A DNA stretch of 64,000 nucleotides from an uncultured Chitinophaga sp. Lineage in GTDB: Bacteria > Bacteroidota > Bacteroidia > Chitinophagales > Chitinophagaceae. The DNA lies in the NCBI GenBank assembly GCA_964412375.1, contig CAYPOD010000007.1, forward strand, positions 24,123 to 88,122. The letters are read 5' to 3'. Shown piece by piece: positions 1,804-23,724 of the stretch. The position numbers were made by a program, and so were the translations under genes. The notes under the pieces were generated by a model. It was not told the DNA's origin, did no database searches, and was given only the letters and a program-made list of their open reading frames with translations. Position 1 is the first letter of the stretch. Each line of letters opens with the position of its first letter.

Positions 1804-1818
1804 ACAGGCAAAAAAATT

Positions 1819-3177: not shown

Positions 3178-3188
3178 AATAATAGGAC

Positions 3189-5648: not shown

Positions 5649-5682
5649 AATTGAACTAACTTGTCATAACCGAAAACACTAC

Positions 5683-7755
5683 ATGAAAAATCTATTCCTG
5701 CCCCTGCTGATTGGCTCATCTGTAGTTTGTCATGCACAGTTCAACCCTGCCTGGCAGGGAAAAAAATGTGCCGTGGTGATCACTTATGATGATGCGATCA
5801 ATGAGCATCTTGATAAAGCTGCCCCTTTACTGGACTCGTTAGGACTGAAAGCAACTTTTTATGTCACTGCATTTTCCCAATCGGTGCAAACAAGAATAAA
5901 TGAATGGAAAAGCCTGGCACTGAATGGGCATGAACTTGGCAACCACACGTTGTTTCATCCCTGTCTTGGTGGCAAGGGAAGAGAATGGGTCAAACCTGAA
6001 TATGACTTGAGTCATTACACCGTTCAACGGATGGTGGATGAAACAAGAATGACCAACCTGTTTTTGCAGTCACTGGATGGCAAAAGCAAAAGAACATTTG
6101 CTTTCACCTGTGGGGACATGAAGATCGGCGACTCTTCATTTATCAGTGCTATGAAGAATGACTTTGTAGCGGCAAGGGCAGTGAGAAATGAAATGCATAA
6201 AATAAATGAGGTGGACCTGTATAACGTAGATTGTTATATGGTAAACAATCACACGGCAGCGCAAATGATCGAATGGGTAAAAAAAGCCATGGAAACAAAT
6301 TCACTGCTCGTTATTCTTTTTCATGGTGTGGGAGGCGGCAACCCGCTGAATGTGGATGTGGCAGCCCACCGCGAATTTTTACAATTCGTAAAGCAAAATG
6401 AGAAAGACATAATGATCGCACCCATGGTGACCGTTGCCGATCATATCAAAACGTGGCAGGAAAGAGACCGGGCGGCCAAACTGCAGCAGCAGAAAACACA
6501 GGCTGATTATGCCGATATGCTTGCGAAACTGAACATTCCTGCGAGTGCAAAACGGGCAGGTCCTTCCGGCAATCCATCGGCGCCCAATGCGGCGAATGCC
6601 GATGAATCGAAAGCAACACAATACACTTCCTTGCCCGATCCTTTAATAATGAAGAATGGAAAGAAAGTTACCGATGCAAAAACCTGGTGGAATAAACGAA
6701 GACCGGAGATTGTTGAAGCATTTGACAAAGAGATCTATGGTCGTTTGCCAAAGAACATACCCAAAGTCACCTGGGAGGTGGTCAGCGCCGTGGATACCGT
6801 ATTCGGAAATCAGAAAGCTATTGCAAAGAACCTGCTTGGTCATGTTGACAATTTATCATATCCGCAGCTAAAAGTAGATATACAATTATCGGTGATCACA
6901 CCAAAGGGAATCGGGAAACCGGTGCCGCTGGTGATGGAATTTGGTTTCATTTTTCCCGGCGGGTTTCGTCCGCCAGCACCGCCACCGGGAACGGTTATTC
7001 CAAAAAGCTGGCAGGAACAGGTGCTGGAACAGGGCTGGGGTTTTGCCATCATTGTGCCCACCAGTTTCCAGGCTGATAACGGCGCCGGTTTGACGGAAGG
7101 AATAATTGGTCTTTGCAATAAAGGACAATACCGAAAGCCTGATGATTGGGGAACCCTGCGTGCATGGGCATGGGGCGCCAGCCGTGCCATTGATTATTTT
7201 GAAACAGATAAAGATATAGATGCCAAACGCATCGGCATCGAGGGATTATCCCGTTATGGAAAAGCAGCGGTGGTGGCAATGGCTTATGAGCCACGGATTG
7301 CCCTTGGTTTTATTGGTTCGTCCGGTGCTGGCGGTGTAAAAATTTTGCGTCGCATATATGGTGAGCAGGTTGAAAATCTGGCTTCATCCGGCGAATATCA
7401 TTGGTTTGCCGGTAACTTTATTAAATATGGAGCAGACCCGTTAACACAAAATGATCTGCCGGTGGATGCACACCAGTTGGTAGCGTTATGTGCCCCGCGG
7501 CCGGTGTTCATCAGTTCGGGTTCTCCCAATGTGGAAGGAAAATGGGTGGACGCAAAGGGAATGTTTTTAGGAGGCGCACATGCAACACCCGTTTATGAAT
7601 TGCTCGGCAAAAAAGGGTATGGCACCATGGAATACCCGCCGGAACAAACAGCGTTGATTGACGGCGAAATTGCTTTTCGCCAGCATGAAGGCGGGCATAC
7701 CACCGGACCCAATTGGCCAACTTTCATTAAATGGGCCAGCCGGTATTGGAAATAA
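5683..7755 (+). CDS. Bimodular carbohydrate esterase: N-terminal CE4-like polysaccharide deacetylase fused to C-terminal CE15 glucuronoyl esterase
   Basis: Signal peptide. The N-module has VVITYDDA (TFDD-like motif 1) and GNHTLFHP (H-[ST]-x-x-H motif 2) of the CE4/polysaccharide deacetylase fold. A low-complexity linker (PSGNPSAPNAANADES) follows. The C-module has LPDPLIMKNGKKVTDAKTWWNKRRPEIVEAF and GLSRYGKAA, which fits the G-x-S-R-x-G nucleophile motif of CE15. Confidence 0.75.
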   Translation: MKNLFLPLLIGSSVVCHAQFNPAWQGKKCAVVITYDDAINEHLDKAAPLLDSLGLKATFYVTAFSQSVQTRINEWKSLALNGHELGNHTLFHPCLGGKGREWVKPEYDLSHYTVQRMVDETRMTNLFLQSLDGKSKRTFAFTCGDMKIGDSSFISAMKNDFVAARAVRNEMHKINEVDLYNVDCYMVNNHTAAQMIEWVKKAMETNSLLVILFHGVGGGNPLNVDVAAHREFLQFVKQNEKDIMIAPMVTVADHIKTWQERDRAAKLQQQKTQADYADMLAKLNIPASAKRAGPSGNPSAPNAANADESKATQYTSLPDPLIMKNGKKVTDAKTWWNKRRPEIVEAFDKEIYGRLPKNIPKVTWEVVSAVDTVFGNQKAIAKNLLGHVDNLSYPQLKVDIQLSVITPKGIGKPVPLVMEFGFIFPGGFRPPAPPPGTVIPKSWQEQVLEQGWGFAIIVPTSFQADNGAGLTEGIIGLCNKGQYRKPDDWGTLRAWAWGASRAIDYFETDKDIDAKRIGIEGLSRYGKAAVVAMAYEPRIALGFIGSSGAGGVKILRRIYGEQVENLASSGEYHWFAGNFIKYGADPLTQNDLPVDAHQLVALCAPRPVFISSGSPNVEGKWVDAKGMFLGGAHATPVYELLGKKGYGTMEYPPEQTALIDGEIAFRQHEGGHTTGPNWPTFIKWASRYWK

Positions 7756-7778
7756 AAATATTGTGAAATATAAATAAG

Positions 7779-9398
7779 ATGAGATACTGGTTTTTAATAG
7801 CAGGAATAATATTCACGGTGCTGCAATCAACTGCGCAAAGGCCAGTCAAAATTCCAGCATTAGTAAAAACCGGGAAGTATGTTCAGCTATTAGTAGATAA
7901 TAACCCTTTTTTAATACTCGGAGGAGAACTTGGAAATTCCAGTGCCTCAAGCAATGATTATATGCGACCCATCTGGTCAAAACTGAAAAAGATGAACCTG
8001 AACACCGTGATTGCCCCGGTGTATTGGGAGCTGATGGAACCGGCAGAAGGAAAATTTGATTTTTCCTTATTAGATAGCCTGATCAGGAATGCACGGTTGT
8101 ATAATATGAAATTAATTATACTTTGGTTTGGCGCCTGGAAGAACAGCATGTCCTGTTATGCTCCTGCATGGGTGAAAACGAATACATCACGTTTTCCCAG
8201 AGCATTGGATAAGAATGGTTTCCCGCAGGAAATACTGACCCCTTTCAATAAGAACAACCTTGAAGCCGATAAAAAAGCATTTGTCCGCCTGATGCAATAT
8301 ATCAAACAGGTGGATGGTCTCCGGCATACGGTCATTGCCATACAGGTGGAAAATGAGATCGGGATGCTTCCCGATGCCCGCAGTTATGATGAAGCAGCTA
8401 ACAGGGCATTTAATGACCCCGTTCCAAAAGAATTGATCAGCTATCTTGAAAAAAACAAAGCACATCTTCTCCCCGAAGTCAAATCTATCTGGGAAAAGAA
8501 TGGTTACAAAACATCCGGAACCTGGGAAGATGTTTTTGGTAAAGATCTTTCGACAGATGAGATATTCATGGCCTGGTATTACGCCGCATTTGCAAATCAA
8601 TTGACGGAGGCAGGAAAAGCTGTATACAAGCTCCCCATGTTTGTAAACGCTGCTTTGAACCATCCGGGAAGAAAACCCGGTGAATATCCCAGCGCCGGCC
8701 CGTTGCCGCATATCATGGATATCTGGAAAGCCGGAGCTCCGGCTATAGATATATTAACTCCTGATTTTTACAACCCGGATTTCAAACATTGGTGCGACCT
8801 GTACACTAGAGCTGGTGATCCGTTGCTTATACCGGAACATCGTTTTGAAAAAGGAATTGATGCTAAAGCGTATTTTGCTTTTGGCAATTACAATTGTCTT
8901 GGTTTTTCACCCTTCTCCATTGAATCAACAAATGAACCGGAAAAAGAACCTATCGGAAAAACATACAGTATTTTACAGCAACTGACTCCGCTTATCACCA
9001 GGCACCAGCCTTCCGGAAACGTCAAGGGCTTTCTGATTGAAAAAGATTCAGTACAGAATAACATTCCTGTCGGAGATTACCTGGTAACTGTTCATCACGA
9101 ATATAAAATGGGCTGGTCACCCGGTTCGAAAGAAAATAACTGGCCGCTTGCAGGCGGATTGATCATTGCAGTGGCACCGGATGAATTTTATGTAGCCGGC
9201 ACCGGTTTCGTTATGATTTTTGATTCACAGGCAATAAATAAAAAAGCCGGCTTTATCAGTATTGATGAAGGAACATTCCAAAATGGCAAATGGATTCCCG
9301 GTCGCAGGATGAACGGTGATCAAAACCACCAGGGAAGGCATGTTCGGATAGCAGCTAATGATCACAGCATCCAGCATGTTAAACTATATACTTACTAA
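7779..9398 (+). CDS. Glycoside hydrolase, GH35/GH42-like TIM-barrel beta-galactosidase-type domain with C-terminal DUF5597-like domain
   Basis: Signal peptide. NPFLILGGELGNSSAS...VYWELMEPAEGKFDF...ILWFGAWKN...IAIQVENEIG is a clan GH-A pattern with the acid/base NE. The family assignment is from memory only. Confidence 0.6.
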   Translation: MRYWFLIAGIIFTVLQSTAQRPVKIPALVKTGKYVQLLVDNNPFLILGGELGNSSASSNDYMRPIWSKLKKMNLNTVIAPVYWELMEPAEGKFDFSLLDSLIRNARLYNMKLIILWFGAWKNSMSCYAPAWVKTNTSRFPRALDKNGFPQEILTPFNKNNLEADKKAFVRLMQYIKQVDGLRHTVIAIQVENEIGMLPDARSYDEAANRAFNDPVPKELISYLEKNKAHLLPEVKSIWEKNGYKTSGTWEDVFGKDLSTDEIFMAWYYAAFANQLTEAGKAVYKLPMFVNAALNHPGRKPGEYPSAGPLPHIMDIWKAGAPAIDILTPDFYNPDFKHWCDLYTRAGDPLLIPEHRFEKGIDAKAYFAFGNYNCLGFSPFSIESTNEPEKEPIGKTYSILQQLTPLITRHQPSGNVKGFLIEKDSVQNNIPVGDYLVTVHHEYKMGWSPGSKENNWPLAGGLIIAVAPDEFYVAGTGFVMIFDSQAINKKAGFISIDEGTFQNGKWIPGRRMNGDQNHQGRHVRIAANDHSIQHVKLYTY

Positions 9399-9438: not shown

Positions 9439-10572
9439 ATGAATAATCTCGGTAAATCCAGGAGAAAATTCCTGTACGATCTGGGTATGGCCGGAATGAG
9501 CATACCATTTCTTTCAGCCTATATGGATTGCAATAGTGAAACCTCAAATAAAACTGGTATGAGTAACCGAAAAGATGGTAAGCTTGGAATTGCATTAGTG
9601 GGACTGGGTGGCTATGCAGGCGGGCAACTGGCCCCTGCCCTGCTGAAAACGGAACATTGTTACCTGGCAGGTATTGTCACCGGCACTCCTTCCAAGATCC
9701 CGGTGTGGAAGGAAAAATACAATATTCCTGATAAGAATATTTATAGCTACGATAACTATGATGATATAAAGAACAACCCGGATATTGATATCATCTATGT
9801 GGTGCTGCCTAATAACATGCATGCCGAATATACTATCCGTGCATTTGAAGCCGGCAAACATGTGATCTGTGAAAAGCCGATGGCCATCCAGGTGGAAGAA
9901 TGTGACCGGATGATCGCTGCGGGAAAAAAAGCGGGCAAGCTGTTATCCATTGGGTATCGTTTGCATTTTGAACCCTATAACCTGGAGATGGTGAGATGCG
10001 GCACCAAAAAAGTGTATGGTGAAATAAAAAAATTGTCCGGTGGCTTTGGATTCCGGGCAGGACCGAACCAATGGCGGCTCACTCAAAAATATGCAGGTGG
10101 CGGCCCGTTGATGGATGTGGGCATTTATGTGATACAGGCCATGTGCTATACCACCGGTATGGAGCCCATCGCTGTGACTGCAAAGGAAGGTGAAAAAACA
10201 GACTTCGAAAGATTTAAAGAAGTGGAACAATCCCTCACCTGGCAAATGGAATTTCCCAACGGGCTGGTAGCAGACTGCAAGACCAGCTACAATGACAATA
10301 TGAATTTTGTACGGGCCGAAGCTGAGAAAGGAGTTTTTGAATTGACCTCTGCGTATAACTATGGCGGGCAACGCGGCTCCACTCCTGAAGGGCCTATGAA
10401 TTTTCCGCATATCAACCAGCAGGCAAAACAAATGGATGCCTTTGCATTGGCTGTAAAAAACAAACAACCTTCAATTGTTCCCGGCGAAATGGGAAGAAGG
10501 GATGTAAAATACTTACAGGCAATTTATGAGTCCATGCGGACAGGAAAAAAGGTACAAATCAAGGCAGGTTAA
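9439..10572 (+). CDS. Gfo/Idh/MocA family oxidoreductase with twin-arginine (Tat) signal
   Basis: N-terminus has SRRKFL followed by a hydrophobic stretch. The Rossmann motif is LGIALVGLGGYAGG. AGKHVICEKPMA is the EKP motif of Gfo/Idh/MocA, as in glucose-fructose oxidoreductase. Confidence 0.85.
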   Translation: MNNLGKSRRKFLYDLGMAGMSIPFLSAYMDCNSETSNKTGMSNRKDGKLGIALVGLGGYAGGQLAPALLKTEHCYLAGIVTGTPSKIPVWKEKYNIPDKNIYSYDNYDDIKNNPDIDIIYVVLPNNMHAEYTIRAFEAGKHVICEKPMAIQVEECDRMIAAGKKAGKLLSIGYRLHFEPYNLEMVRCGTKKVYGEIKKLSGGFGFRAGPNQWRLTQKYAGGGPLMDVGIYVIQAMCYTTGMEPIAVTAKEGEKTDFERFKEVEQSLTWQMEFPNGLVADCKTSYNDNMNFVRAEAEKGVFELTSAYNYGGQRGSTPEGPMNFPHINQQAKQMDAFALAVKNKQPSIVPGEMGRRDVKYLQAIYESMRTGKKVQIKAG

Positions 10573-10606
10573 AAGCAAATCTTCCTATAGCAATTTGTAA
10601 TGGCAA

Positions 10607-10640
10607 AAAGGCGGTAAGGACAACAACCCTTACCGCCTTT
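10607..10640. terminator. Bidirectional intrinsic terminator hairpin between convergent genes
   Basis: AAAGGCGGTAAGG-acaacaac-CCTTACCGCCTTT gives a perfect 13-bp stem flanked by an A-run and a T-run. It sits between the 10572 (+) and 10661 (-) stop codons. Confidence 0.75.
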
Positions 10641-10660
10641 CATTTATCACTCAGTTTTGT

Positions 10661-11938
10661 TTATTCAAAGAAAGGAACATTCGGAGCAGCATATTTTTTC
10701 ATCGCTTCCATATTGAGATCAACACCGATACCCGGTTTCTCAGATACTTTAATAAAGCTGTCTTTCACCCAATTTTCTTCATCAAATGTTACAATCTCTC
10801 TGTACATAGCATTGGTATGGAAATAGGATTGCCATTCCATCAGGTGGAAATTAGGTACCGATACACAAACGTGTGCACAGGCCATAGCGCCGAGAAACGA
10901 TGCCACCATATGTGGTGAAAAAGGTTTGTAGTATAAATTGGCAAGATTAGCTATTCGCTGTCCTTCACCTAATCCTCCGCATTTTTGCAGATCTGGCATT
11001 ACAATATCCACACCATTATCCATCAATTGCTTGAATCCATAACCGAGATATACGTTTTCGCCGGCTGCTATGGGTGTATTTGTTTCTGCGCCAATTTCTT
11101 TAAACGCAGCATAGTTCTCTGCCGGAACCGGCTCTTCCAGCCATGTCAGGTTCAAAGGTTCCACTTTTTTGGCGATAGCTTGTGCTGTTACAAAATCATA
11201 CCGCCCATGCATATCCACACAAAGATCAACTTTAGGACCTACTGCTTCCCGTACTGCAGCAAGCTGGTTGTACATCCTGGATATTTCACCAGGGCTGGCA
11301 GTCCAGTTATAACGATCATATTTATCCGGGTCGGAAACATAATCAAGGTCAAATTTCAAGGCATTAAAATTCCAGTTTTTAATAGCTTCTTTTGCAGCAT
11401 CTGCAAAATCTTTTGGCGACGGGAACCGTACACGATAAAGAGCCGTATCACAATATACCCTTACTTTATCACGGAATTTGCCGCCCAACAATTGGTAAAC
11501 AGGAAGACCCAATGTTTTGCCGGCAAGGTCCCACAAGGCGGTTTCGATAGCAGATAAAACAGCAACGTACATGCCTGATTGTCCGCCGCCGAAGTGTGCA
11601 CTTCTGCGGTAATCTTCGAAAATCTTATGCATGTTCAACGGGCTCTGTCCTCTTAATCTTCTTCCGAGGTTTTGCACCAGGTAATAGGTTCCGTTAATTG
11701 CATCCACTCCTTCACCTAAGCCATAAATATCCTGGTCGGATAAAATTTTTACAAACAATTTACCTCCAACATATCCGCACTTTACATCCGTGATCTTTAT
11801 AGCAGATGGTGCTGAATATTTCGGCGTTCTATCAACAGCATCCTCTAATCCTCTTCCAAAGGTTGCCATCGGGGCAAGTGGTACCAAAGCAGCAGCAGCA
11901 GCGGCCTTGGTTAAAAACGATCTTCTTGAATTTGTCAT
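10661..11938 (-). CDS. Enolase-superfamily (mandelate racemase/muconate lactonizing, acid-sugar dehydratase type) protein with Tat signal
   Basis: N-terminus is MTNSRRSFLTKAAAAAALVPLAPMATFG. Also seen are ALWDLAGKTLGLPVYQLLGG, KFDLD, DMHGRY, WLEEP and AAGE, typical of the MR/galactonate dehydratase-like subgroup. Confidence 0.85.
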   Translation of the reverse strand: MTNSRRSFLTKAAAAAALVPLAPMATFGRGLEDAVDRTPKYSAPSAIKITDVKCGYVGGKLFVKILSDQDIYGLGEGVDAINGTYYLVQNLGRRLRGQSPLNMHKIFEDYRRSAHFGGGQSGMYVAVLSAIETALWDLAGKTLGLPVYQLLGGKFRDKVRVYCDTALYRVRFPSPKDFADAAKEAIKNWNFNALKFDLDYVSDPDKYDRYNWTASPGEISRMYNQLAAVREAVGPKVDLCVDMHGRYDFVTAQAIAKKVEPLNLTWLEEPVPAENYAAFKEIGAETNTPIAAGENVYLGYGFKQLMDNGVDIVMPDLQKCGGLGEGQRIANLANLYYKPFSPHMVASFLGAMACAHVCVSVPNFHLMEWQSYFHTNAMYREIVTFDEENWVKDSFIKVSEKPGIGVDLNMEAMKKYAAPNVPFFE

Positions 11939-12009
11939 TATGCTAGTTTTTAAAAATGTGAGATAATTATATTTCTAAACCGGTTTTTCAATCTTCAAAT
12001 TTTTCAGCA

Positions 12010-12996
12010 CTAGTGGGTATTTGTTGGATTGCTGGTGCTTTCTCTTTGTTTTATAAGTTCCAGCACCTGTTCCCTGCCGACAGGTAATTTGTCTACATTA
12101 TCTTTCAGCCACTGTGTAAAGTCTTTTTGAATGGGGTCGGCCCATCTTGCATCAATTTGGCCGGCAGTATATTTTCCTTCCCGTATGCGGAGCTTTCCGA
12201 ACAAATCTTCCAGGCGGACACGTTCTGAATTTTTTACAACTCTTTCTGCCAAATGCGGAGGTATGAAATAAACAACCCCCATTTTACCCAACACCACGTC
12301 GCCGGGCATTACTGTAACACCTTTGATATTAGTTGGCTTATTGATGCCTATAATCATTGTTGTCAGATCCCTGTTATTACCACCGCCTGGGTTATGAAAA
12401 GAGGGATCGTAACTGCTGAAATAAGAGGTAAAGCCACCAAATCCTTTCATTCCTTCCACATCCCGCAATGCACCATCATACACCACGCCGTTACCTGTTT
12501 TTGTATAAATGGAAGTGCCTACCCTGTCTCCAACAGTAGGGCCATTCTTTTTCGCTCCAAACTGATCTACAACGTATACATCACCTTTTTGTAATTGCTC
12601 AACACCCCATACATTCTGAGATACCTTTATTCCCTCCTTTTTTCCCATGGAGTCAATAGCTCTCCAAACATCGGGGCGTCCAGGCATAAATGAAGTAGTG
12701 AAAGCACGGCCTACCAATACACTGTCAGGGTTAATTATTTGTCCCCAGCCATCAGCCATCTGATACCTGTAGCCTGCTCCATTTACAACCTCCCATGCTT
12801 CTTCTATTGTAACAGGTTTCATTCTGTTAAGAATGTCGTCAGAAACTTTAGGACGACCATCGGGAAAACGTTCTCCTTTCCATTCAGGTGTTAACGCAAT
12901 GATTTCTTCTTTGCTGGCCTGTACATACTGGCCTTGTGAATGATTGTAAAAAACGGCAATGGCAATCATCAACAACACAACTCTTGGTTTTAGCAT
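12010..12996 (-). CDS. RraA-family (aldolase/decarboxylase-like, PF03737-type) protein with Sec-type signal peptide
   Basis: The N-terminus MLKPRVVLLMIAIAVFYNHSQGQ is hydrophobic. GDVYVVDQFG...TVGDRVGT...GNGVVYDGALRDVEGM...VTVMPGDVVLGKMGVVYFIP follows the RraA/HMG-aldolase-like pattern. Confidence 0.7.
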   Translation of the reverse strand: MLKPRVVLLMIAIAVFYNHSQGQYVQASKEEIIALTPEWKGERFPDGRPKVSDDILNRMKPVTIEEAWEVVNGAGYRYQMADGWGQIINPDSVLVGRAFTTSFMPGRPDVWRAIDSMGKKEGIKVSQNVWGVEQLQKGDVYVVDQFGAKKNGPTVGDRVGTSIYTKTGNGVVYDGALRDVEGMKGFGGFTSYFSSYDPSFHNPGGGNNRDLTTMIIGINKPTNIKGVTVMPGDVVLGKMGVVYFIPPHLAERVVKNSERVRLEDLFGKLRIREGKYTAGQIDARWADPIQKDFTQWLKDNVDKLPVGREQVLELIKQRESTSNPTNTH

Positions 12997-13038
12997 AAAT
13001 AAAATTTTATATGATGAGCTAATAATTAAAAAACTATA

Positions 13039-14163
13039 TTAAGACGCTGATTTTGAAATTTCCTTTTCCCCTATCACATCCTTGGGAGTGCGACCATGCC
13101 ACCAGCTTGCCAGCACAGACCCGGTAATATTCATTAGCGGACCGAATACAGCTGCAGCCAGGCCTACTGTAGCCACCTTTCCCATTTCCTTAGCTATGCC
13201 GGATGCAAGTCCGGCGTTTTGCATACCTACTTCGAGTGCAACAGTGCGGCAATCTCTTTCCGGCATCCTGAACAACCTGGCGCCCCAGTATCCCAAAAAA
13301 TAACCTGCTGTGTTATGAATTAATCCTATTAAGATCAGCAGTGGCCCGATCGTTAAAAGGTTATCCCTGCCCGCAGCCACGATAATTGTAATGATGATGG
13401 CAATGCTGAGCATAGACACATAAGGCATGGCATTATCCAGCCATTTTATTTTCCCGCTAAGCAGTTTATTAAAAATCAATCCGCCACCAATCGGGATGAT
13501 GATCATTTTAAAAATATCCCACATCATTTTGGTTACTTCAATTTCAACCAATTCCCCGGCCAGCAACTTCATGAGCAGTGGAGTAACAAATGGCGCAATA
13601 AGGGTTGTAATGGAAGTGATAGTGACGGACAATGCTAAGTTAGCTTTTGCGAGGTACGCCATCACATTTGAGGCAAGCCCGCTGGGTGAACAGCCGATAA
13701 GAATGATGCCTGCTGCGACTTCAGGAGAAAATCCCGAAAAACTTGCCAGCGCAAACCCTAAAAATGGCATAATGGCAAACTGGCTCAGCACACCCACGAT
13801 GACACCTTTAGGTGATTTGACCACAGCAGCAAAATCATTCAGGCTCATGGAGGCGCCCATACCAAACATCAGCACTTGTATCAGGGGGATTATAAGACTG
13901 CTTACTTTGAAGTCACCCCATTGCTGAAAATAGCCGGGATGATACATGGCTAATGCCACTGCTGCAAAAATGATGACGGTAAATGACATACCCCGCAAAT
14001 GCCTGTTGCCCCTGAAGGCAATGGCGAGGTTTACAAAAACCAATGCCAGCATCCAGCCGGCAGCATTTTGGTTTTGCTTATAGGTAAATAGAATAAATAA
14101 AAATAAGAACAACCCTGCTATGCCATAAAACAAGCCGTATTTTTTTCCTGTTGATTCGCTCAT
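13039..14163 (-). CDS. Bile acid:sodium symporter (BASS) family transporter
   Basis: Polytopic membrane protein. LMFGMGASMSLNDF and GCSPSGLASNVM are typical of the SBF/BASS fold. Confidence 0.8.
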   Translation of the reverse strand: MSESTGKKYGLFYGIAGLFLFLFILFTYKQNQNAAGWMLALVFVNLAIAFRGNRHLRGMSFTVIIFAAVALAMYHPGYFQQWGDFKVSSLIIPLIQVLMFGMGASMSLNDFAAVVKSPKGVIVGVLSQFAIMPFLGFALASFSGFSPEVAAGIILIGCSPSGLASNVMAYLAKANLALSVTITSITTLIAPFVTPLLMKLLAGELVEIEVTKMMWDIFKMIIIPIGGGLIFNKLLSGKIKWLDNAMPYVSMLSIAIIITIIVAAGRDNLLTIGPLLILIGLIHNTAGYFLGYWGARLFRMPERDCRTVALEVGMQNAGLASGIAKEMGKVATVGLAAAVFGPLMNITGSVLASWWHGRTPKDVIGEKEISKSAS

Positions 14164-14209
14164 TAGTTTTATTTTAAGTCTTTACCGAACTATAAACTTT
14201 GCTATTTCT

Positions 14210-15745
14210 TTAGCCCTGGTTGCCATTTGAATGATGCTGCAAAGCAGCTATATCTGCAAATTCGCCGGCCAGTTTTGTACTTAGACGTTCAAAAATTTTA
14301 AAATACTTCATGTAACTCTTATGATTTTTTTTATCGGGTGTGGCAAAATCCGGCAACACTACTGTTTTCACCGCTTCATCCAGTGATTCATAGATACCCA
14401 TTTCAGTTGCACTCAACAGGTAAGAGCCGTAGCTCACACTATGATAGTTCTGTCTTAACCTTACCGGTTTATTATATATATCCGCCACCATCTGCGTAAA
14501 GAACGGCAGTGAGCCAAAGCTGCCGTTGATGGAAAGACTGTTGATGACACGATGTTCTTCAAGGATTTTTCCAATGCTGTAAATGCCATATAAAACACCC
14601 TCAATAGTAGCTCTTACAAAATGTGCTTTCTCATGTTTGATGTTCAAACCAAAATATACACCACGGGCATTGGCATTCCAGATCGGGGCCCTTTCACCCA
14701 GCAGGTAGGGCAGGAAGATCAACCCGTCCGATCCCGGCGCCACATTCGCAGCATCGTTGATCAGTTCGTGCATGCTGTGCTCTATGTCAAATGGATTTTT
14801 AAAATCGCCAAACTGTCTGGTAAACCATTCGAAAATGACACCGCCGTTGTTGGTGGGGCCGCCGGAAACATAGCGGTTCTCCGTCAGCAGGTAATTAAAG
14901 AAACGTTGCTTGTCATCCTGCAGCACTTTGTCACTCATCACCCTGACAGCGCCGCTGTCCTCCACAGTGATAGTGGCTGTACCTTCGCCGTTTATCCCGT
15001 CACCCAATATTGCCATGCAACCATCACTTGAGCCAACCAGTATCCTCGTATCAGCTGAGAGACCCAATGAGGTTTGATAAGCTTTGCTGAGTTTGCCCGA
15101 GCGGGTGAATACGGGTACCGGTTCGGGCAACATAGCAGCAGTGATGCCGGCAAATTTCAGTGAATCTGGTTCCCATTTTATTTTATGGATGTTCAGCAAA
15201 CCTGTAGCAGATGCAATGCTGTAATCCATCATGTATTCACCGGTCAGTTGTTGCAGGATATAACTTTTCAGCGATAGAAATTTGCTGACCTGTTTGAATT
15301 TCTCTGTTTCGTTGTTTTTGATCCATGCTATTTTTGCCAGCGGTGACATGGGGTGCAAAGGAGTGCCGGTGGCATTATATATTTTTTTGCCCTGTGCAGA
15401 GCTTTTCAATTGCAATGCTTCCTTGTTGGCCCTGTTGTCAGCCCAGGTGATGGCATAGCCCATCGGGTTACCCCTTTTATCCACAGCCAGTAAACTGTGC
15501 ATGGATGAACTGAAACAGATACATGACACTTTGTATTTCTGTGGATGAACAAAATCATTCAACAGGTTTTTCAGCACATACAACATGGTAATAAATATCT
15601 GGTCGGGATCCTGTTCACTGTAATCAGGTTCGCTGTGAAAAGTGGGACAGTATCCTTTCAGCGATCCAATGATGTTGCCATTAAGGTCAAAAGCATATAC
15701 TCTCACTGCATTGGTGCCAAGTTCTATAGTGATGATACATTCCAT
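14210..15745 (-). CDS. FGGY-family carbohydrate kinase (gluconokinase/xylulokinase-like)
   Basis: The length is 511 aa. N-terminal IIELGTNAVRVYAFD matches the actin-like ATPase phosphate-1 motif. GSSDGCMA and GGPTNNGG fit FGGY N and C domains. Confidence 0.85.
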   Translation of the reverse strand: MECIITIELGTNAVRVYAFDLNGNIIGSLKGYCPTFHSEPDYSEQDPDQIFITMLYVLKNLLNDFVHPQKYKVSCICFSSSMHSLLAVDKRGNPMGYAITWADNRANKEALQLKSSAQGKKIYNATGTPLHPMSPLAKIAWIKNNETEKFKQVSKFLSLKSYILQQLTGEYMMDYSIASATGLLNIHKIKWEPDSLKFAGITAAMLPEPVPVFTRSGKLSKAYQTSLGLSADTRILVGSSDGCMAILGDGINGEGTATITVEDSGAVRVMSDKVLQDDKQRFFNYLLTENRYVSGGPTNNGGVIFEWFTRQFGDFKNPFDIEHSMHELINDAANVAPGSDGLIFLPYLLGERAPIWNANARGVYFGLNIKHEKAHFVRATIEGVLYGIYSIGKILEEHRVINSLSINGSFGSLPFFTQMVADIYNKPVRLRQNYHSVSYGSYLLSATEMGIYESLDEAVKTVVLPDFATPDKKNHKSYMKYFKIFERLSTKLAGEFADIAALQHHSNGNQG

Positions 15746-15755
15746 AATATTCTTT

Positions 15756-16643
15756 TTATTTTGTCCTTAAATGGTTTTTCCTGAACTGGCTGGGTGTATA
15801 CCCTGTCAGTTTCTTGAAAGTGGTGGAAAAATGCTGTGATGAATAAAAACCGGTATCCAGGGCGATGTCTGTGAGGCTGATAGACGGCTGCTTCAGCAAC
15901 TTTATGGCTTCTGATATACGAATATTGATCAGGTAGCTCAGCGGTGAAAACCCGGAATAGCTTTTTACTTTTTCATTGAATAAAGTGGTGCCTAAACCCA
16001 CCAGTGCGGCCATTTCTTCCACTGTCCATTGATGGGACAGGTTGCGGCGAAGCTCCTGCTCCAGTTTCATGAAGGTTCCGGGAAAATCTCTTCCCGGATT
16101 GGAAATACGGGTAAAATACCTTGCTATTTGGATAAATATTTCATCCAGTAAATGATTTACTCTTGCCTGGTATCCTATCTCCTGTGTAAATATTTCTGAC
16201 TGGATAGTTTTAAAGATGTTGCCGATTTCGTGAAATTTTTGAAGCACGGGTGAATGATCAGATTGCAACACTTTACTTACAGTATGACTTTCCTTATCTG
16301 TTAAATTGCTCCAGGAACCGGTTACAAACTCCCCTCTTTCGTTCTTGTCCATTTTAATATGTATCCAGAAAAAAGAACCTATCTCCAGTACATTGCCCTC
16401 ATTCCCAAAAGTTTCTTCCGGCAACACCAATGCTGCATCGCCGGGGTAAAAGACAAAGGAGCGCTGGTTGATCGTCCATTCAAATTTCCCTTCCTGGACA
16501 TAATATATTCTCAGCCCCTGTTTTGTTCCGCAAGGAAACCCACTCAGCCGGATGGCAGGATTTTTTACAGCGCCGATTTCTATGATATGCTGAAACAACC
16601 GTAGCTCTAAAGCAGTTTTATTACAAAGTACAAATTGATTCAT
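15756..16643 (-). CDS. AraC-family transcriptional regulator (cupin sensor domain plus HTH)
   Basis: The C-terminus WTVEEMAALVGLGTTLFNEKVKSYSGFSPLSYLINIRISEAIKLL...DIALDTGFYSSQHFSTTFKKLTGYTPSQFR is a classic AraC double HTH. I chose the ATG at 16643 because the listed ORF start at 16649 is a TTG. Confidence 0.85.
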   Translation of the reverse strand: MNQFVLCNKTALELRLFQHIIEIGAVKNPAIRLSGFPCGTKQGLRIYYVQEGKFEWTINQRSFVFYPGDAALVLPEETFGNEGNVLEIGSFFWIHIKMDKNERGEFVTGSWSNLTDKESHTVSKVLQSDHSPVLQKFHEIGNIFKTIQSEIFTQEIGYQARVNHLLDEIFIQIARYFTRISNPGRDFPGTFMKLEQELRRNLSHQWTVEEMAALVGLGTTLFNEKVKSYSGFSPLSYLINIRISEAIKLLKQPSISLTDIALDTGFYSSQHFSTTFKKLTGYTPSQFRKNHLRTK

Positions 16644-16872
16644 ATGCAATTCAGAACAAGCAGTTAATGAGCCTTTCTTCGCAATCGTTGCTTACTAATT
16701 CAGCAGTATATAAAGAAAGGAAATTTCCGCCAACTGAATTTACAAAATTCAACAAAGTTCTTTATTGGAAGATTCTGATTTACAACCTCGATACTTTAGT
16801 ACCGGATTGCGTAAACCCAGGGAGAGGTTTTGCTGTCTCTGGAATTATTCATTTATCAAAACGACTTGCTTT

Positions 16873-19800
16873 ATGAAGGAAAATCAACGACCCGTCAAAA
16901 CGGGTTTTGGCAGACTTGCCTGCTTGCTGCTATTCTTCACCTTACTTTCGGTTACAGTACATGCACAGCAGGTTACCGGAACGGTAACCGATGATGAAAA
17001 AAAACCTGTTGCTGATGCATCCGTATCAGTGAAAGGCACCCGGAATGCCACAATGACTAACAACGACGGTAAATTCACTATCAATGCCGGCGGCAATGCT
17101 GTGCTGGTCATTACCCACGTAAGTTTTATGACACTGGAAATCCCGCTTAACAACCGGACCACTATTACCGTGGAGCTGGTAAAGAAAGATGGAACAGGTC
17201 TGGACGAAGTGGTGGTGACGGCTTTGGGTGTGAGACGTCAGTCAAAAAAACTGGGCTATGCCGCAACTTCTGTTAATACGGAAGAACTGGTCACCCAACG
17301 AACCACTAATATGATGGAGTCGCTGGAAGGTAAAGTGGCTGGCCTGAACATTACACCTCCTGCTGCCGGTGCCGGCGCCAGCACACAGATTCGTCTTCGC
17401 GGGCAAGCTGCATTTGCAGGTGCGAACAATGCTCCTCTTCTTGTCATCAATGGTCTGCCCATGGACCAGGATGCAAGAGGCGCCAACGGAAACGGTCAGA
17501 TTGCCCAAAGGGACCGTGGTGATAACCTGCAAAACATTAACCCGGATGATATTGAAAGCATGACCGTACTGAAAGGAGCAACTGCCGCCGCTATCTATGG
17601 CGCCAGGGCGGCCAATGGTGCGATCATTATCACTACCAAATCCGGCCAAAAGAACAGGGGCATCGGTGTAGATTTCACTTCGAGCTATACTATTTCAAAG
17701 GCCATGAACTTCTTTGATGAAATAACGCAGACAGAATACGGGCAAGGCCTTGCAGGTGCCCGGTTCACTACAGCTGGTCAAGCACAGGGCAATGGACAAT
17801 TTGGATGGGGAGAAAGATTGGATGGAGTGCCCACAATTAATTATGACGGAATCATGAGACCCTATTCTGCCCACCCTTACCAGCTTTTTGACTTTCTACA
17901 AACAGGAACCAATTTCACCAATACATTAGGATTGTCTGGCGGTGGTGCTAATGGAAGTTTCAGGGCATCAATCTCCAACACAGACTCCCGTGGCATTCAG
18001 CCTACCAATGAATATAAAAGAAGAATATTCAATCTGGGGATTACCCATGATGTAACCAAGAAGCTTAAACTGATGCTTAACATCAACTATGCTGATGAAG
18101 ACAACATCAACCCCCCGCAAATTGGTACACAGGGTGAAGGTGCAGTAAACTTCTTCACCAGGATGCCGATCTCTGTTCCGCTGGAGGCTTATAAGGAAAG
18201 CGTAATTGATCCTGCTACCGGCGCCGAATGGCGGACCAATGGTTTCCAGGGTACGATCAACAACCCCTTCTTCCAGTTGGTAAAAAAACAATTTTTTAAA
18301 GAGGATAGAAATCGCCTTCTTGGAACAGCTACTTTGCGTTATGATATAACGAGCTGGTTGTATGCACAAGGCAGGTTCAATCTTGACCGTAGCAACAGTT
18401 TTATGGAATGGAATGTACTGAATGGCGCCGGAGCTACTACTCTTTTAAATGGTGACAATACATACAGAGGTGCCTATAATATCAGACAGGATGCAACAAC
18501 CGATATTAATGCAGATTTCCTTATAGGCAGCAGCCATAAGATTAAAGATTTCACAGTTGATGCCAGCTTTGGCGGCAATACGCTAAGGACCCAGTGGCAG
18601 CGCAATGAACAAGGTGCAACCAATTTCACCGTACCGGATCTATATTCCATAGCTAATGGAACCATTCGGACCCAGGGTTATGGTTTTTCCAGGAGCCGCA
18701 TCAATTCGCTATATGGCTGGGCTGAGTTAGGATACAAAGACCTTTTATTCCTGAACTTTTCAGGTAGAAATGACTGGTTCTCTGTCCTGAATCCTGCCCA
18801 AAACAGCAAGTTCTATCCATCAGTATCCGGTAGCTTTATTTTTTCTGAATTGCTGAAAAGCCAGAGCTGGCTGAACTATGGTAAACTGAGGGCTTCCTGG
18901 GCAAAAGTGGGTAGTACAAATGGTGTGAATCCATTCGATGGTATTTTGACCTATGGAATTAACCAGAACCAGTTTAATGGACAGACCTTAGCCGGTGTTG
19001 CCGGTGGTAATGCACCCAATCCTTTCCTGCAGCCCTTTACCATTACAGAAAAAGAAATCGGTGTTGAATTGAAAATGTTTAAGAACAAAGTATTGCTGGA
19101 TGTCGCCGTATTTGATAAAGTGACAACCGACCAGATACTGAATGTTGTTCTTTCTAACTCATCCGGCTATTCCGGTTCACAACAAAACAAAGCTTCGCTG
19201 AAAAACAGCGGACTTGAAACTCTTCTTGAAGTAAGGGCCGTTCAAAACCGTAATTTCAGCTGGACCACTTCATGGAATAATGCTTATCTCAAAACTAAAG
19301 TTCTTGATGTCGGAAATGATAACGGAACAATTCTGCTGTTATTCTTTAACGGAACAGGAAACGAGTTTCTCGGTGAGATAAGATATACCGAGGGATTGGC
19401 CATGAACCAGCTTTACACCCGTACATACAGGAGAAATAACAAAGGGGAAGTGGTTGTGAGTAATGCGGGTCGTTTGCTCGCATCAACCGGCGGACCTGTG
19501 GGTAATGGATTCTTCCCTGTTGGCAGCTCCATTCCCAAATTTACCGGTGGATGGAACAACACATTTACATTTAATAAACTGAGTGTAGGGTTACATATTG
19601 ACTATAAATTTGGCGGCACTGTATTGGGTTCCACCCTGCTGAACATGACCCGCCAGGGACACTCCAAAATGTCACTGGAAGGAAGGGAAAACGGATTAAT
19701 CATTCCTGCTGTTTATGAAAGCACCGGGCTGCCTAATACTTCCGTTATACCTGTTGCAAGTTTGCAAGGACATTATACAGACTACAGGAACCTGCAGATC

Positions 19801-20076
19801 GGGGACCCCTTCACATTCAAGTCAGATTTTGTTAAACTTAGAAACGTGTCAGTATCATATGACCTGACCTCGATGATCAACAAAACACCGGCATTGAATT
19901 TTGTTAAAGGCCTGGTGATTTCAGCAGCTTGCCGTAATGCAGCGATACTTCACAAGGATATTCCCGGTTTGGATCCGGAAGCTATCCAGTCTTCCGGTGA
20001 TTTCAGGGCAGGTTATGAAAATTCATCTATGCCAACCACCCGTAATTTCAACTTTACCTTAAACGTCAAATTCTAA
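16873..20076 (+). CDS. SusC/RagA-family TonB-dependent outer-membrane transporter
   Basis: The in-frame ATG at 16873 gives MKENQRPVK...LLSVTVHAQQ (signal). VTGTVTDDEKKPVADASVSVKG is the carboxypeptidase-regulatory-like domain. LDEVVVTALG is the TonB box/plug, and the protein ends in F. No STN domain is visible. The longer ORF from 16765 is rejected. Confidence 0.9.
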   Translation: MKENQRPVKTGFGRLACLLLFFTLLSVTVHAQQVTGTVTDDEKKPVADASVSVKGTRNATMTNNDGKFTINAGGNAVLVITHVSFMTLEIPLNNRTTITVELVKKDGTGLDEVVVTALGVRRQSKKLGYAATSVNTEELVTQRTTNMMESLEGKVAGLNITPPAAGAGASTQIRLRGQAAFAGANNAPLLVINGLPMDQDARGANGNGQIAQRDRGDNLQNINPDDIESMTVLKGATAAAIYGARAANGAIIITTKSGQKNRGIGVDFTSSYTISKAMNFFDEITQTEYGQGLAGARFTTAGQAQGNGQFGWGERLDGVPTINYDGIMRPYSAHPYQLFDFLQTGTNFTNTLGLSGGGANGSFRASISNTDSRGIQPTNEYKRRIFNLGITHDVTKKLKLMLNINYADEDNINPPQIGTQGEGAVNFFTRMPISVPLEAYKESVIDPATGAEWRTNGFQGTINNPFFQLVKKQFFKEDRNRLLGTATLRYDITSWLYAQGRFNLDRSNSFMEWNVLNGAGATTLLNGDNTYRGAYNIRQDATTDINADFLIGSSHKIKDFTVDASFGGNTLRTQWQRNEQGATNFTVPDLYSIANGTIRTQGYGFSRSRINSLYGWAELGYKDLLFLNFSGRNDWFSVLNPAQNSKFYPSVSGSFIFSELLKSQSWLNYGKLRASWAKVGSTNGVNPFDGILTYGINQNQFNGQTLAGVAGGNAPNPFLQPFTITEKEIGVELKMFKNKVLLDVAVFDKVTTDQILNVVLSNSSGYSGSQQNKASLKNSGLETLLEVRAVQNRNFSWTTSWNNAYLKTKVLDVGNDNGTILLLFFNGTGNEFLGEIRYTEGLAMNQLYTRTYRRNNKGEVVVSNAGRLLASTGGPVGNGFFPVGSSIPKFTGGWNNTFTFNKLSVGLHIDYKFGGTVLGSTLLNMTRQGHSKMSLEGRENGLIIPAVYESTGLPNTSVIPVASLQGHYTDYRNLQIGDPFTFKSDFVKLRNVSVSYDLTSMINKTPALNFVKGLVISAACRNAAILHKDIPGLDPEAIQSSGDFRAGYENSSMPTTRNFNFTLNVKF

Positions 20077-20081
20077 GCCAT

Positions 20082-21771: not shown

Positions 21772-21952
21772 GGCTCATATAGGAAATTTAGCGACTGGAC
21801 AAATAAACATAAGCTGCCTGTAGAAAAGTAGTCAGCGTATGTGAATATGTCAGTATCTGAATAAAAAAAATAAAGGCTTCCATTCATGAGAATACCAGGC
21901 ATGCCGGCCAGATCTAATTAATCAGCCGCTATTGTTATTGAAAACTGAACGT

Positions 21953-23680: not shown

Positions 23681-23724
23681 TCCGGCACCCCGATGGGAAA
23701 AAAGTTGGAATAACGCTATGAAAT

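Follow-up and report, generated by a model that had tools for sequence, protein, structure and literature searches.

An enolase-superfamily dehydratase and an RraA-like protein with predicted export signals suggest partly periplasmic sugar-acid breakdown in Bacteroidota

Where in the cell are sugar acids broken down? The question is raised by a locus in a 64-kb (64,000-nucleotide) stretch of DNA from an uncultured Chitinophaga sp., hereafter the window. Enolase-superfamily dehydratases and RraA/aldolase-like proteins are, to our knowledge, known from the cytoplasm only, all of their characterised relatives being cytoplasmic. Judging from their N-termini, an enolase-superfamily sugar-acid dehydratase and an RraA/aldolase-like protein appear to be tagged for export in this soil Chitinophaga-like bacterium and in hundreds of other Bacteroidota species, suggesting that the periplasm is the site of part of sugar-acid breakdown, beside a dedicated 2-oxo-acid importer. 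No description of such an exported system was found in the literature.

The enolase-superfamily (MR_MLE) protein (10661..11938, minus strand, 425 aa; PF13378, 182 bits, and PF02746) is a putative GalD-like acid-sugar dehydratase with predicted Tat export. Among enzyme families it matches aldonate dehydratases (GalD, gluconate/galactonate, ManD) best, rather than glucarate or galactarate enzymes. Its 229 bits against the galactonate-dehydratase model fall below the cut-off of 311. The nearest structure is 2qq6 (303 bits, alignment starting at residue 42), which is itself uncharacterised. D242-x-H244, E268, E294, D316 and H343 are all invariant, and this spacing (D-x-H, E at +26, E at a further +26, then D and H) is that of the metal ligands and acid/base residues of DgoD; the enzyme retains its catalytic residues. 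The clade is tight and separate, with the next 50% cluster at 46% identity. The protein begins MTNSRRSFLTKAAAAAALVPLAPMATFG, in agreement with an earlier sequence-only reading, and its Tat signal peptide (about residues 1-28; 11855..11938, minus strand) carries an SRRSFLTK motif and passes the curated Tat model TIGR01409 with 22.3 bits against a cut-off of 16.7. The pattern [ST]RR.F[LI] occurs only twice in the 25,382 ORF residues of the window, at the N-termini of this protein and of a Gfo/Idh/MocA oxidoreductase, which makes a mere chance match unlikely for the two signals.

The RraA/HMG-CHA-aldolase-like protein (12010..12996, minus strand, 328 aa; PF03737, 53 bits) begins MLKPRVVLLMIAIAVFYNHSQGQ, identical to the sequence quoted earlier, and is predicted to be exported by Sec. 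Its Sec/SPI signal peptide covers residues 1-22 (12931..12996, minus strand), with predicted cleavage between SQG and Q23, and the same pattern of basic n-region, variable hydrophobic core and invariant junction Gln is found in 120/120 relatives. The Gln at +1 fits the Bacteroidetes Q-rule, by which Gln follows the signal peptidase I cleavage site (PMC5837995). Rapid change in the leader that stops at an invariant Gln and gives way to a conserved mature start is the textbook pattern of a cleavable signal. Alignment places D157, R178-D179 and E263 opposite D102, R123-D124 and E199 of 3NOJ; R178-D179 is invariant in 207/207 sequences and D157 is present in 88%; the catalytic residues are retained here as well. 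The AF2 model of the protein has a pLDDT of 43.

The sequence-only reading had assigned Tat signals to the enolase-family and Gfo proteins and a Sec signal to the RraA-like protein. All three assignments hold: the N-termini match those quoted, and the leaders recur among relatives (RR motif in 114/120 for the enolase family and 107/120 for Gfo). The hydrophobic cores are Tat-like on the Kyte-Doolittle scale for the two Tat leaders (1.7 and 1.1) and Sec-like for the RraA-like protein (3.4), and each extension lies upstream of the region that can be aligned with solved or curated homologues. It could be argued that the leaders are non-functional, the start being mis-called or the motif vestigial, and that both enzymes work in the cytoplasm in an ordinary non-phosphorylative sugar-acid pathway, as the location of their characterised relatives, the missing score with the Pfam TAT_signal model (7.8 bits) and the presence of a normal cytoplasmic dehydratase route in the window would suggest. 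However, no start codon lies between the preceding stop and ATG 11938, and the RR motif of the enolase leader is invariant over 70-100% identity and in paralogues (104/106 copies at 81 genomic loci, a divergent paralogue included), whereas the h-region is variable. Substitutions in this leader are distributed 71/56/173 over the three codon positions, and this third-position bias indicates that it evolves as coding sequence. Met24, earlier named as a downstream start that would leave no signal, is not conserved: only 29/113 orthologues have a Met at this position, and in 44/113 the stretch from the RR motif to the domain contains none. The extensions, too, are retained in orthologues. Together with the cleavable-signal pattern of the RraA-like protein and the clean division of neighbouring genes into signal-bearing and signal-less along the expected line, these observations make non-functional leaders very improbable.

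Profile searches uphold the family calls at the locus (Gfo/Idh/MocA, MR_MLE enolase superfamily, RraA-like, SBF/BASS, FGGY and AraC). Contrary to the earlier claim, these genes do not all form a single minus-strand string: the exception is Gfo, which lies on the plus strand beyond a hairpin (10610..10637; GGCGGTAAGG / CCTTACCGCC, read directly, with flanking A- and T-runs), a bidirectional terminator that separates the Gfo gene from the enolase gene. The string consists only of AraC-FGGY-BASS-RraA-enolase, with gaps of 10, 46, 42 and 71 bp, and is indeed headed by the AraC-family regulator (15756..16649, minus strand; HTH_18/HTH_AraC), the FGGY gene lying 10 bp away. The FGGY kinase (14210..15745, minus strand) has no signal, is predicted to be cytoplasmic and resembles gluconate kinases (TIGR01314, 436 bits, cut-off 648; 293 bits to gluconate kinase 3gbt versus 121 bits to the best xylulokinase). 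The BASS/SBF protein (13039..14163, minus strand; PF01758, 135 bits), a sodium-coupled carboxylate symporter and candidate importer of the pathway product, scores 218 bits against ASBT_NM 3zuy, and 239 bits with TIGR00841 and 231 bits with the PanS model, both below cut-off. Divergent from this operon is a SusC/SusD pair (16765..21644, plus strand), whose orthologues (score fraction 0.5-0.7) adjoin the module in about 22-24 loci; the SusC cluster is represented at 49 loci, SusD at 39. No Tat genes are found within the 64-kb window.

The Gfo oxidoreductase (9439..10572, plus strand) begins MNNLGKSRRKFLYDLGMAGMSIPFLSA, again as quoted, and carries a Tat signal at residues 1 to about 27, which scores 14.2 bits with TIGR01409, just under the cut-off. 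Its closest solved relatives are Caulobacter AAOR (5a02, 272 bits) and Zymomonas GFOR (240 bits). In about 80% of Bacteroidota Gfo relatives a Cys directly follows the h-region and may make these proteins lipoproteins. The gene is the last member of a plus-strand glycan-degrading string (GH97, GH43-CBM6, GH95, CE4-CE15 and GH35, 19..9398) that would supply sugars, and it forms a separate transcription unit converging on the enolase gene. It belongs to the periplasmic GFOR/AAOR group as an ordinary member and lies outside the conserved module. A conventional partner route for Gfo lies at 21932..26907 (plus strand): an IlvD/EDD pentonate dehydratase lacking a signal and predicted to be cytoplasmic, an SGL lactonase with a lipoprotein-type signal (23725-24735), a GntP permease (24739-26064) and a FAH-family enzyme (26074-26907). 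Since this route is complete, periplasmic dehydration is not obviously needed.

What, then, is conserved? Around the enolase clade (82 loci), the neighbourhood proposed earlier is kept for the RraA-like protein (59/82) and BASS (56/82), across Chitinophagaceae, Cytophagales and Flavobacteriaceae, but FGGY is present in only 25/82 and Gfo in just 7/82. The unusual and conserved unit is the BASS transporter with the Sec-type RraA-like and Tat-type enolase-family proteins. The last two genes are adjacent and duplicated as pairs, and several loci have one BASS alongside two different pairs. In Bacteroidales, orthologues of the enolase-family gene are solitary, with RraA and BASS not found nearby. 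AraC accompanies FGGY in 24-25 loci and PfkB occurs in 7, so inferences about the lower pathway rest on few lineages. A PQQ and cytochrome-c dehydrogenase is found in 11 related loci. The neighbours that bear signals are SGL and cupin-SGL lactonases, a secreted cupin (12 loci) and DUF4440 proteins, and those without are FGGY, PfkB, an Eda-like protein (c27), FAH, c22 and IlvD. The proposed periplasmic sugar-acid route thus gains comparative support from the dehydrogenases, the signal-bearing lactonases and the signal-less kinases and lower-pathway neighbours, although Gfo, its supposed first enzyme, does not belong to the module.

The AraC-FGGY-BASS-RraA-like-enolase operon is probably one copy of a module that aerobic Bacteroidota have conserved, in which both exported enzymes work in the periplasm. 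Sugars from SusC/D-imported glycans would be oxidised there; the GFOR/AAOR-type enzyme would do this here, and in most relatives a PQQ/cytochrome-c dehydrogenase. The lactone would be opened by a signal-bearing SGL lactonase. The GalD-type dehydratase, exported folded via Tat, would dehydrate the sugar acid, giving a 2-keto-3-deoxy acid, on which the RraA/HMG-aldolase-like metalloenzyme, exported via Sec and trimmed by signal peptidase I just ahead of Gln23, may perform either an aldol cleavage to pyruvate and an aldehyde or some different enolate reaction that depends on a metal. BASS would take up the 2-oxo or hydroxy acid so formed for cytoplasmic enzymes, namely FGGY kinase here and, in other lineages, PfkB with a possible Eda or FAH with a possible aldehyde dehydrogenase. 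Periplasmic cleavage and uptake of pyruvate by BASS may occur, but these partners speak at least as strongly for a sugar acid or 2-keto-3-deoxy acid entering the cytoplasm intact.

A strictly linear periplasmic route, from Gfo oxidation through dehydration to RraA-like aldol cleavage, with BASS importing pyruvate or a small 2-keto acid and FGGY phosphorylating something, is somewhat unlikely. The RraA-like protein does share with the pyruvate-forming HMG/CHA aldolase its Arg-Asp pair and the carboxylates of its metal site, a single BASS serving two different pairs fits a common product such as pyruvate, and plant BASS2 carries pyruvate. However, Gfo is rarely linked and is separately transcribed here, the FGGY, PfkB/Eda and FAH/aldehyde dehydrogenase partners would use intact C5/C6 acids, and the aldehyde co-product has no encoded fate unless it is oxidised by the PQQ dehydrogenase. 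Alternatively, the exported pair may act on acidic sugars or lactones rather than aldonates from neutral sugars, e.g., (4-O-methyl)glucuronate from glucuronoxylan or aldaro-lactones from C1 oxidation of uronates. In that case, the enolase-family enzyme would serve as a Gci-like lactone cycloisomerase/eliminase, yielding a 2-keto-3-deoxy-aldarate (a 4-hydroxy-2-oxo diacid) for the RraA-like enzyme to cleave. Xylan/uronate-related functions are abundant at the locus and in relatives (CE15 glucuronoyl esterase fusion, GH10, GH43, PF00756 and SASA esterases), the natural substrates of HMG/CHA aldolase are 4-hydroxy-2-oxo dicarboxylates, and the recurring secreted cupin would fit. This purely inferential proposal is nevertheless doubtful, and unlikely in our estimate, as GH67/GH115 or a uronate dehydrogenase was not identified adjoining the module and the top family matches are aldonate dehydratases.

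How does the preferred periplasmic module compare with known systems? The Tat-exported Gfo enzyme, earlier cited as the precedent, is of a kind already known, Bacteroidota included: Zymomonas mobilis GFOR and Caulobacter crescentus AAOR, which converts D-xylose to D-xylonate and xylitol, both bear Tat signals (PMC4628093), and GFOR is described as being exported along with its tightly bound NADP as a folded protein (PMC8121099). The window Gfo is a related protein with the same kind of leader, but this precedent is silent on exported dehydratases and RraA-like proteins. In Bacteroides thetaiotaomicron, BT2156-BT2159 form a periplasmic 3-keto-glycoside route with a Tat-signal Gfo-family oxidoreductase and a signal-peptide partner enzyme (PMC8121099), a Bacteroidota precedent for periplasmic sugar oxidation; however, it oxidises glycosides at C3 and uses other partner families, without enolase-superfamily or RraA-like proteins.

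The two enzymes themselves depart from their relatives. E. coli D-galactonate dehydratase DgoD (GalD subgroup) has the same two-domain architecture, but the enolase-family protein misses its equivalog cut-off and has about 46 more N-terminal residues with the Tat signal. HMG/CHA aldolase (LigK/ProA; P. putida 3NOJ) and RraA share the PF03737 fold family and the active-site equivalents, but the RraA-like protein is very distant (15 bits to 3NOJ by profile, below every NCBIfam cut-off), is about 90 C-terminal and 50 N-terminal residues longer, with a Sec signal, and is encoded in a glycan locus, not among the genes of an aromatic pathway. The non-phosphorylative pathways (De Ley-Doudoroff, Weimberg/Dahms and non-phosphorylative Entner-Doudoroff) use the same chemistry and enzyme superfamilies, in the series aldose dehydrogenase, lactonase, enolase-superfamily or IlvD dehydratase, then aldolase or FAH dehydratase, and their conventional IlvD and FAH version is also in the window. 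However, their aldolases are DHDPS/NAL or HpcH-type, not RraA-like, and we know of no characterised version that is not cytoplasmic. Periplasmic glucose oxidation in Pseudomonas and Gluconobacter (PQQ glucose dehydrogenase, lactonase, gluconate uptake) likewise combines extracytoplasmic oxidation, lactone hydrolysis and acid uptake, and loci related to the module carry PQQ/cytochrome-c dehydrogenases and signal-bearing lactonases. In those systems, dehydration and C-C cleavage are cytoplasmic, after uptake and phosphorylation, and the importer is GntP or KguT instead of BASS. The module described here would thus be a variant of periplasmic sugar oxidation in which the dehydratase and the aldolase-like enzyme are themselves signal-tagged.

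The enolase-superfamily MR_MLE protein, an ORF with a family match at 10661-11938 on the minus strand, carries SRRSFLTK at residues 4-11, which matches the S/T-R-R-x-F-L-K motif near the N-terminus. Among the 25,382 residues of all window ORFs of at least 100 aa, the pattern [ST]RR.F[LI] occurs only twice, namely at the N-termini of this enolase-family protein and of the Gfo/Idh/MocA oxidoreductase (Gfo), whose leader reads SRRKFL. On TIGR01409, the curated Tat model of NCBIfam, the enolase-family leader passed the cut-off of 16.7 bits with 22.3 bits, and the Gfo leader fell just under it with 14.2 bits. The Pfam TAT_signal model gave no usable score for these two N-termini or for that of the RraA-like protein (7.8 vs. 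a cut-off of 22.7 for the enolase-family protein). The mean Kyte-Doolittle values of the hydrophobic cores are 1.69 for the enolase-family protein and 1.1 for Gfo vs. 3.41 for the RraA-like protein, the pattern expected of Tat vs. Sec leaders. The enolase-family c-region has a basic residue, Arg29, directly after FG, and the alignment to curated models and solved structures begins at residue 42-48, past the leader. Tat components were also sought across the rest of the 64-kb window, where none were found.

Of the 120 nearest database relatives of the enolase-family protein (73-100% identity), 114 keep the S/T-R-R-x-F motif; the other six start at a Met inside the hydrophobic stretch and seem to be truncated gene calls. 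A second sample, 106 enolase-family genes in 81 loci of GTDB species representatives with the divergent second paralogue included, has the RR motif in 104 copies, the two exceptions being fragments. Within the leader, the RR motif is fixed and the alanine-rich core is variable. Substitutions at codon positions 1/2/3 number 71/56/173 in leader codons 1-40 and 351/212/1464 in the remaining gene, and this same third-position bias shows that the leader is translated and under purifying selection. The ATG at 11938 is the first start downstream of a stop. The sequence-only reading, which had quoted the three ORFs and their N-termini exactly, raised the objection that translation from a downstream Met such as Met24 would leave no signal. 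This start is ruled out, since at position 24 Leu stands in 65 of 113 orthologues and Met in just 29, and 44 of the 113 have no Met at all from the RR motif to the catalytic domain.

The leader of the RraA-like protein (12010-12996, minus strand, ORF and family match) is of a different kind, with a basic n-region (MLKPR), a hydrophobic core (VVLLMIAIAVF), and small residues at -3/-1 followed by Gln at +1 (SQG|Q). All 120 relatives share the basic n-region, a fast-evolving hydrophobic core, the small -3/-1 residues and an invariant Gln, after which the mature start, Q-x-V-Q-x-S-K-E-E, is strongly conserved. By its sequence, this leader matches the Q-rule described for signal peptidase I substrates of Bacteroidetes (PMC5837995, PMC10653852), and would thus be of the Sec/SPI type. 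Paralogous RraA-like copies in the loci all carry similar leaders (40 were inspected directly, all Sec), and the RraA-like domain alignment begins at about residue 51-75, past the leader. The survey of orthologues upheld the enolase-family and RraA-like signals that had been noticed earlier, and with the RR motif kept in 107 of 120 relatives the Gfo leader is a putative Tat signal. It is very probable that both the enolase-family and the RraA-like proteins are exported.

The enolase-family protein contains the MR_MLE_N capping domain (PF02746, 34 bits) and the MR_MLE_C barrel (PF13378, 182 bits). Residues D242 and H244 (D242-x-H244), E268, E294, D316 and H343 are invariant in 21 diverse orthologues, and the catalytic motifs also align in the closest structure, 2qq6, itself uncharacterised. 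By the roles known from E. coli DgoD, we take these six residues to be three carboxylate metal ligands and acid/base residues, and their spacing to be that of the GalD subgroup to which DgoD gives the reference. The galactonate-dehydratase equivalog was not reached (229 bits, below 311), and the other models were far below cut-off. The orthologues form a tight clade of their own: when the mature domain was searched exhaustively, the top 50% cluster scored 571 bits and the next no more than 354 bits (46% identity). About ten further, distant enolase-superfamily clusters were found by direct inspection to carry RR leaders (database relatives P0362, which has 749 members, P0381, P0400, P0417, P0423, P0424, P0444, P0466 and P0495 among them), with 31-46% identity to the query, and most of the named ones are annotated only 'galactonate dehydratase'. 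Tat-tagged enolase-superfamily proteins are thus recurrent, yet a minority, in this branch.

For the RraA-like protein, PF03737 scored 53.3 bits against a cut-off of 24.5, and D157, R178-D179 and E263 lie opposite D102, R123-D124 and E199 of the P. putida HMG/CHA aldolase 3NOJ. R178-D179, E258 and D264 are each present in 207/207 sequences, and D157 in 182/207 (88%). From these kept residues, the protein is probably an enzyme that depends on a metal and has a 2-oxo acid as its substrate. It stayed far below all equivalog cut-offs, those of the LigK/PcmE aldolases included (TIGR02798, 32.9 vs. 304.5; NF006731, 35.5 vs. 179), and by these scores it is LigK/PcmE-like in its working at most and not an orthologue. 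An AF2 model, built from sequences that shared 78% identity or more, had a mean pLDDT of 43, too low for use.

Upstream of these two genes, the minus-strand string holds, by family match, a BASS/SBF transporter (13039-14163), an FGGY kinase (14210-15745) and an AraC regulator (15756-16649), so the family assignments of the sequence-only reading were right for these as for the other three proteins. The BASS protein is placed in the SBF family by PF01758 (135 bits), with TIGR00841 (239, below 326) and the PanS model (231, below 400) not reached. Gfo had been counted in the same string; its gene (9439-10572, ORF and family match) is in fact on the plus strand and runs towards the enolase gene, from which it is separated by a strong hairpin at 10610-10637, GGCGGTAAGG/CCTTACCGCC, with an A-run upstream and a T-run downstream. 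This hairpin, found by eye and not picked up by a consensus terminator scan, looks like a bidirectional intrinsic terminator. A sigma-70 promoter scan of the window found 16 sites vs. 17 expected, not above chance; the promoters of Bacteroidota are unlike the sigma-70 consensus. Further along, 42274-63304 holds genes unrelated to the glycan locus, i.e., genes for methionine/homoserine metabolism and a cluster for the biosynthesis of a surface polysaccharide (GT2, several GT4, Wzx-/Wzy-like proteins, an NDP-sugar dehydratase/epimerase and an ABC transporter). The ORFs at 48231-49319 and 49027-50445 share about 290 bp, which makes a wrongly called start likely for one of them.

Relatives of the enolase-family protein occur in at least 534 species-level genomes, and the best 80 of them (70-97% identity) were examined. 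One of these is from an Ignavibacteriaceae MAG and the others are from Chitinophagaceae, Cytophagales, Flavobacteriaceae and Bacteroidales; the nearest belongs to an uncultured Chitinophaga MAG (97%). Across 82 loci, the genes up to 10 kb from the enolase orthologue include an RraA-like gene in 59, BASS in 56, FGGY in 25, AraC in 25, orthologous SusC/SusD in about 22-24, Gfo in 7, SGL (SMP-30/gluconolactonase-like lactonase) in 6 and IlvD in 3. With 7 of 82 loci, Gfo is no part of the conserved module, and its role as the obligatory first step there is ruled out. When all neighbours were clustered without bias, the enolase-family (ENOL) and RraA-like genes proved to lie next to each other and to have been duplicated together, pair by pair, e.g., in Flagellimonas as SusC-SusD-ENOL2-RraA2-DUF4440-BASS-ENOL-RraA. 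This paired adjacency and duplication argues for a functional couple whose specificity co-evolves.

A second, divergent ENOL-RraA pair adjoins the first in loci of Flavobacteriaceae and of some Chitinophagaceae (L024, at 5712-12250, L035, L045, L030 and L062). The ORF of the second ENOL has about 490-499 aa, and its RR motif comes only after about 70 residues, so either its true start lies downstream or its n-region is unusually long. Bacteroidales orthologues of the enolase-family protein keep the Tat leader and their partners are absent: in the loci from anaerobic Bacteroidales/Rikenellaceae MAGs (L042-L055, L063 and L077), RraA-like, BASS, kinase and dehydrogenase genes are all missing from the 10 kb on either side. 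Such solitary orthologues may have another role or distant partners.

In a typical Chitinophagaceae locus, SusD and SusC lie on one strand, AraC, FGGY, BASS, RraA, ENOL and SGL follow on the other, and a cupin, a PQQ-cytochrome-c dehydrogenase and an esterase return to the first. Besides SGL, the recurrent neighbours are a PQQ and cytochrome-c dehydrogenase (11 loci), a cupin-SGL fusion with a leader of the lipoprotein type (9), esterases (14) and two secreted proteins, a cupin (12) and a DUF4440/SnoaL-like protein (21). Among these, the 153-aa DUF4440/SnoaL-like protein, the cupin, which may come with DUF4286, and the cupin-SGL fusion are further cytoplasmic-looking folds with signals (L018-L041 from Flavobacteriaceae, L010, L012 and L019). 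Neighbours suited to a lower pathway are PfkB (7 loci), found with cluster c27 (4 loci), possibly Eda, and FAH (3 loci), found with the 525-aa cluster c22 (5 loci), which could be an aldehyde dehydrogenase. Signals are borne by the N-termini of ENOL, the RraA-like protein, SGL, the cupins, PQQ-cytochrome c, DUF4440 and most sampled esterases, and are lacking in FGGY, PfkB, c27, FAH, c22 and IlvD. PQQ/cytochrome-c dehydrogenases are periplasmic and kinases require cytoplasmic ATP, so this split is the one that a pathway with a periplasmic upper and a cytoplasmic lower part would predict.

The Gfo gene closes a plus-strand GH97-GH43/CBM6-GH95-CE4/CE15-GH35 run. Within this run, one 690-aa protein (5683-7755) fuses a CE4 polysaccharide deacetylase with a glucuronoyl esterase domain of CE15-like type (110 bits on the GCE_fung model), and it has orthologues in 7 related loci. 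The closest solved relatives of Gfo, aligned from residue 45-47, are the Caulobacter aldose-aldose oxidoreductase AAOR (5a02, 272 bits) and the Zymomonas glucose-fructose oxidoreductase GFOR (1ofg, 240 bits), and on these matches the window Gfo is placed with the periplasmic oxidoreductases of this group. AAOR and GFOR are both Tat-signalled, and AAOR converts D-xylose to D-xylonate and xylitol (PMC4628093). GFOR is described as periplasmic, with its tightly bound NADP travelling out with the folded protein, and BT2158, a Tat-signal Gfo-family enzyme in the periplasm, was already proposed for Bacteroidota (PMC8121099). Given these precedents, the Gfo part of the finding is already known in type.

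A possible set of conventional partners for Gfo lies downstream of SusC/D, namely an IlvD/EDD pentonate dehydratase without signal (21932-23680), an SGL lactonase (23725-24735) whose N-terminus, MRVTLFALLLTTVSC, is a lipoprotein-type leader, a GntP permease (24739-26064) and an FAH-family enzyme (26074-26907). Together with Gfo, this set would amount to oxidation in the periplasm, uptake of the aldonate and its dehydration in the cytoplasm, with the SGL protein as the likely periplasmic lactonase partner. Just past the glycan locus, 30842-33668 on the minus strand holds a 691-aa 2-oxo-acid dehydrogenase component, in which E1 alpha and beta are fused, and another FAH-family protein, which at 203 aa is shorter than the first. 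In about 80% of the 120 Gfo relatives, a Cys stands 8-10 residues past the Tat h-region, in the pattern LLSAYSNC[NS][DE]E, often with acidic residues after it, and the window Gfo (residues 1-34, 9439-9540) has FLSAYMDC with Cys31. By this lipobox-like pattern, Gfo could be a Tat-dependent lipoprotein instead of a soluble periplasmic enzyme. In two relatives, P0273 and P0274, the twin arginine is broken (SRSRF).

We favour, with moderate confidence, a periplasmic sugar-acid module in which glycans imported by SusC/D would free sugars in the periplasm, where these would be oxidised by the GFOR/AAOR-type enzyme here and by the PQQ-cytochrome c enzyme elsewhere. The lactone would then be hydrolysed, the Tat-exported dehydratase would convert the sugar acid to a 2-keto-3-deoxy acid, the RraA-like enzyme would transform this acid, and BASS would take up the product. 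As a less probable alternative, to which the CE15, GH10, GH43 and esterase context points, the substrates may be uronate- or aldarate-type acids of glucuronoxylan-like glycans. The linear pathway of the sequence-only reading, which ran from Gfo to a pyruvate-like product imported by BASS and processed by the FGGY kinase, is unlikely.

For the last steps of the favoured module, aldol cleavage to pyruvate and an aldehyde fits the retention of the 3NOJ-type catalytic residues in the RraA-like protein and the single BASS that serves two ENOL-RraA pairs. Import of an intact C5/C6 acid fits the cytoplasmic partners at least as well: the FGGY kinase scores 293 bits to the gluconate kinase 3gbt vs. 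121 bits to xylulokinase, and the relatives' loci contain PfkB with the possible Eda and FAH with the possible aldehyde dehydrogenase, these lower-pathway indications coming from a minority of loci. More tentatively, and with rather less confidence than the module itself, the whole upper half of a non-phosphorylative sugar-acid pathway may be periplasmic and free of nucleotide cofactors in aerobic Bacteroidota. A PQQ/cytochrome-c or tight-NADP dehydrogenase, a lactonase, the Tat dehydratase and then the Sec RraA-like enzyme as a C-C lyase would act in turn, the respiratory chain would receive the electrons, and a small 2-oxo acid alone would be left for BASS.

No description of exported enolase-superfamily or RraA-like enzymes was found in the literature searched, and a Maribacter arabinogalactan proteome paper made no mention of the module genes. 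In current models of glycan use by Bacteroidota, the periplasm does no more than complete hydrolysis, and monosaccharides are imported and then catabolised in the cytoplasm. If true, the module, with its at least 534 species-level genomes, would shift part of central sugar-acid catabolism out of the cytoplasm and set a dehydratase and an aldolase-like enzyme beside respiratory-chain-linked dehydrogenases in the periplasm. For the enolase and RraA superfamilies, exported members would be a first and would open a new compartment for such chemistry, and a bacterial BASS transporter would gain a physiological role; thousands of 'galactonate dehydratase' and 'RraA' annotations would then be misleading. 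In Pseudomonas, Gluconobacter, the GFOR/AAOR systems and the BT2156-9 route, the sugar is oxidised in the periplasm and the acid is then imported, and to our knowledge the non-phosphorylative dehydratase and aldolase chemistry of the known cases is confined to the cytoplasm. Compared with these systems, what would be new here is the compartment of the dehydratase and its RraA-like partner, the tight pairing of the two, and the BASS importer.
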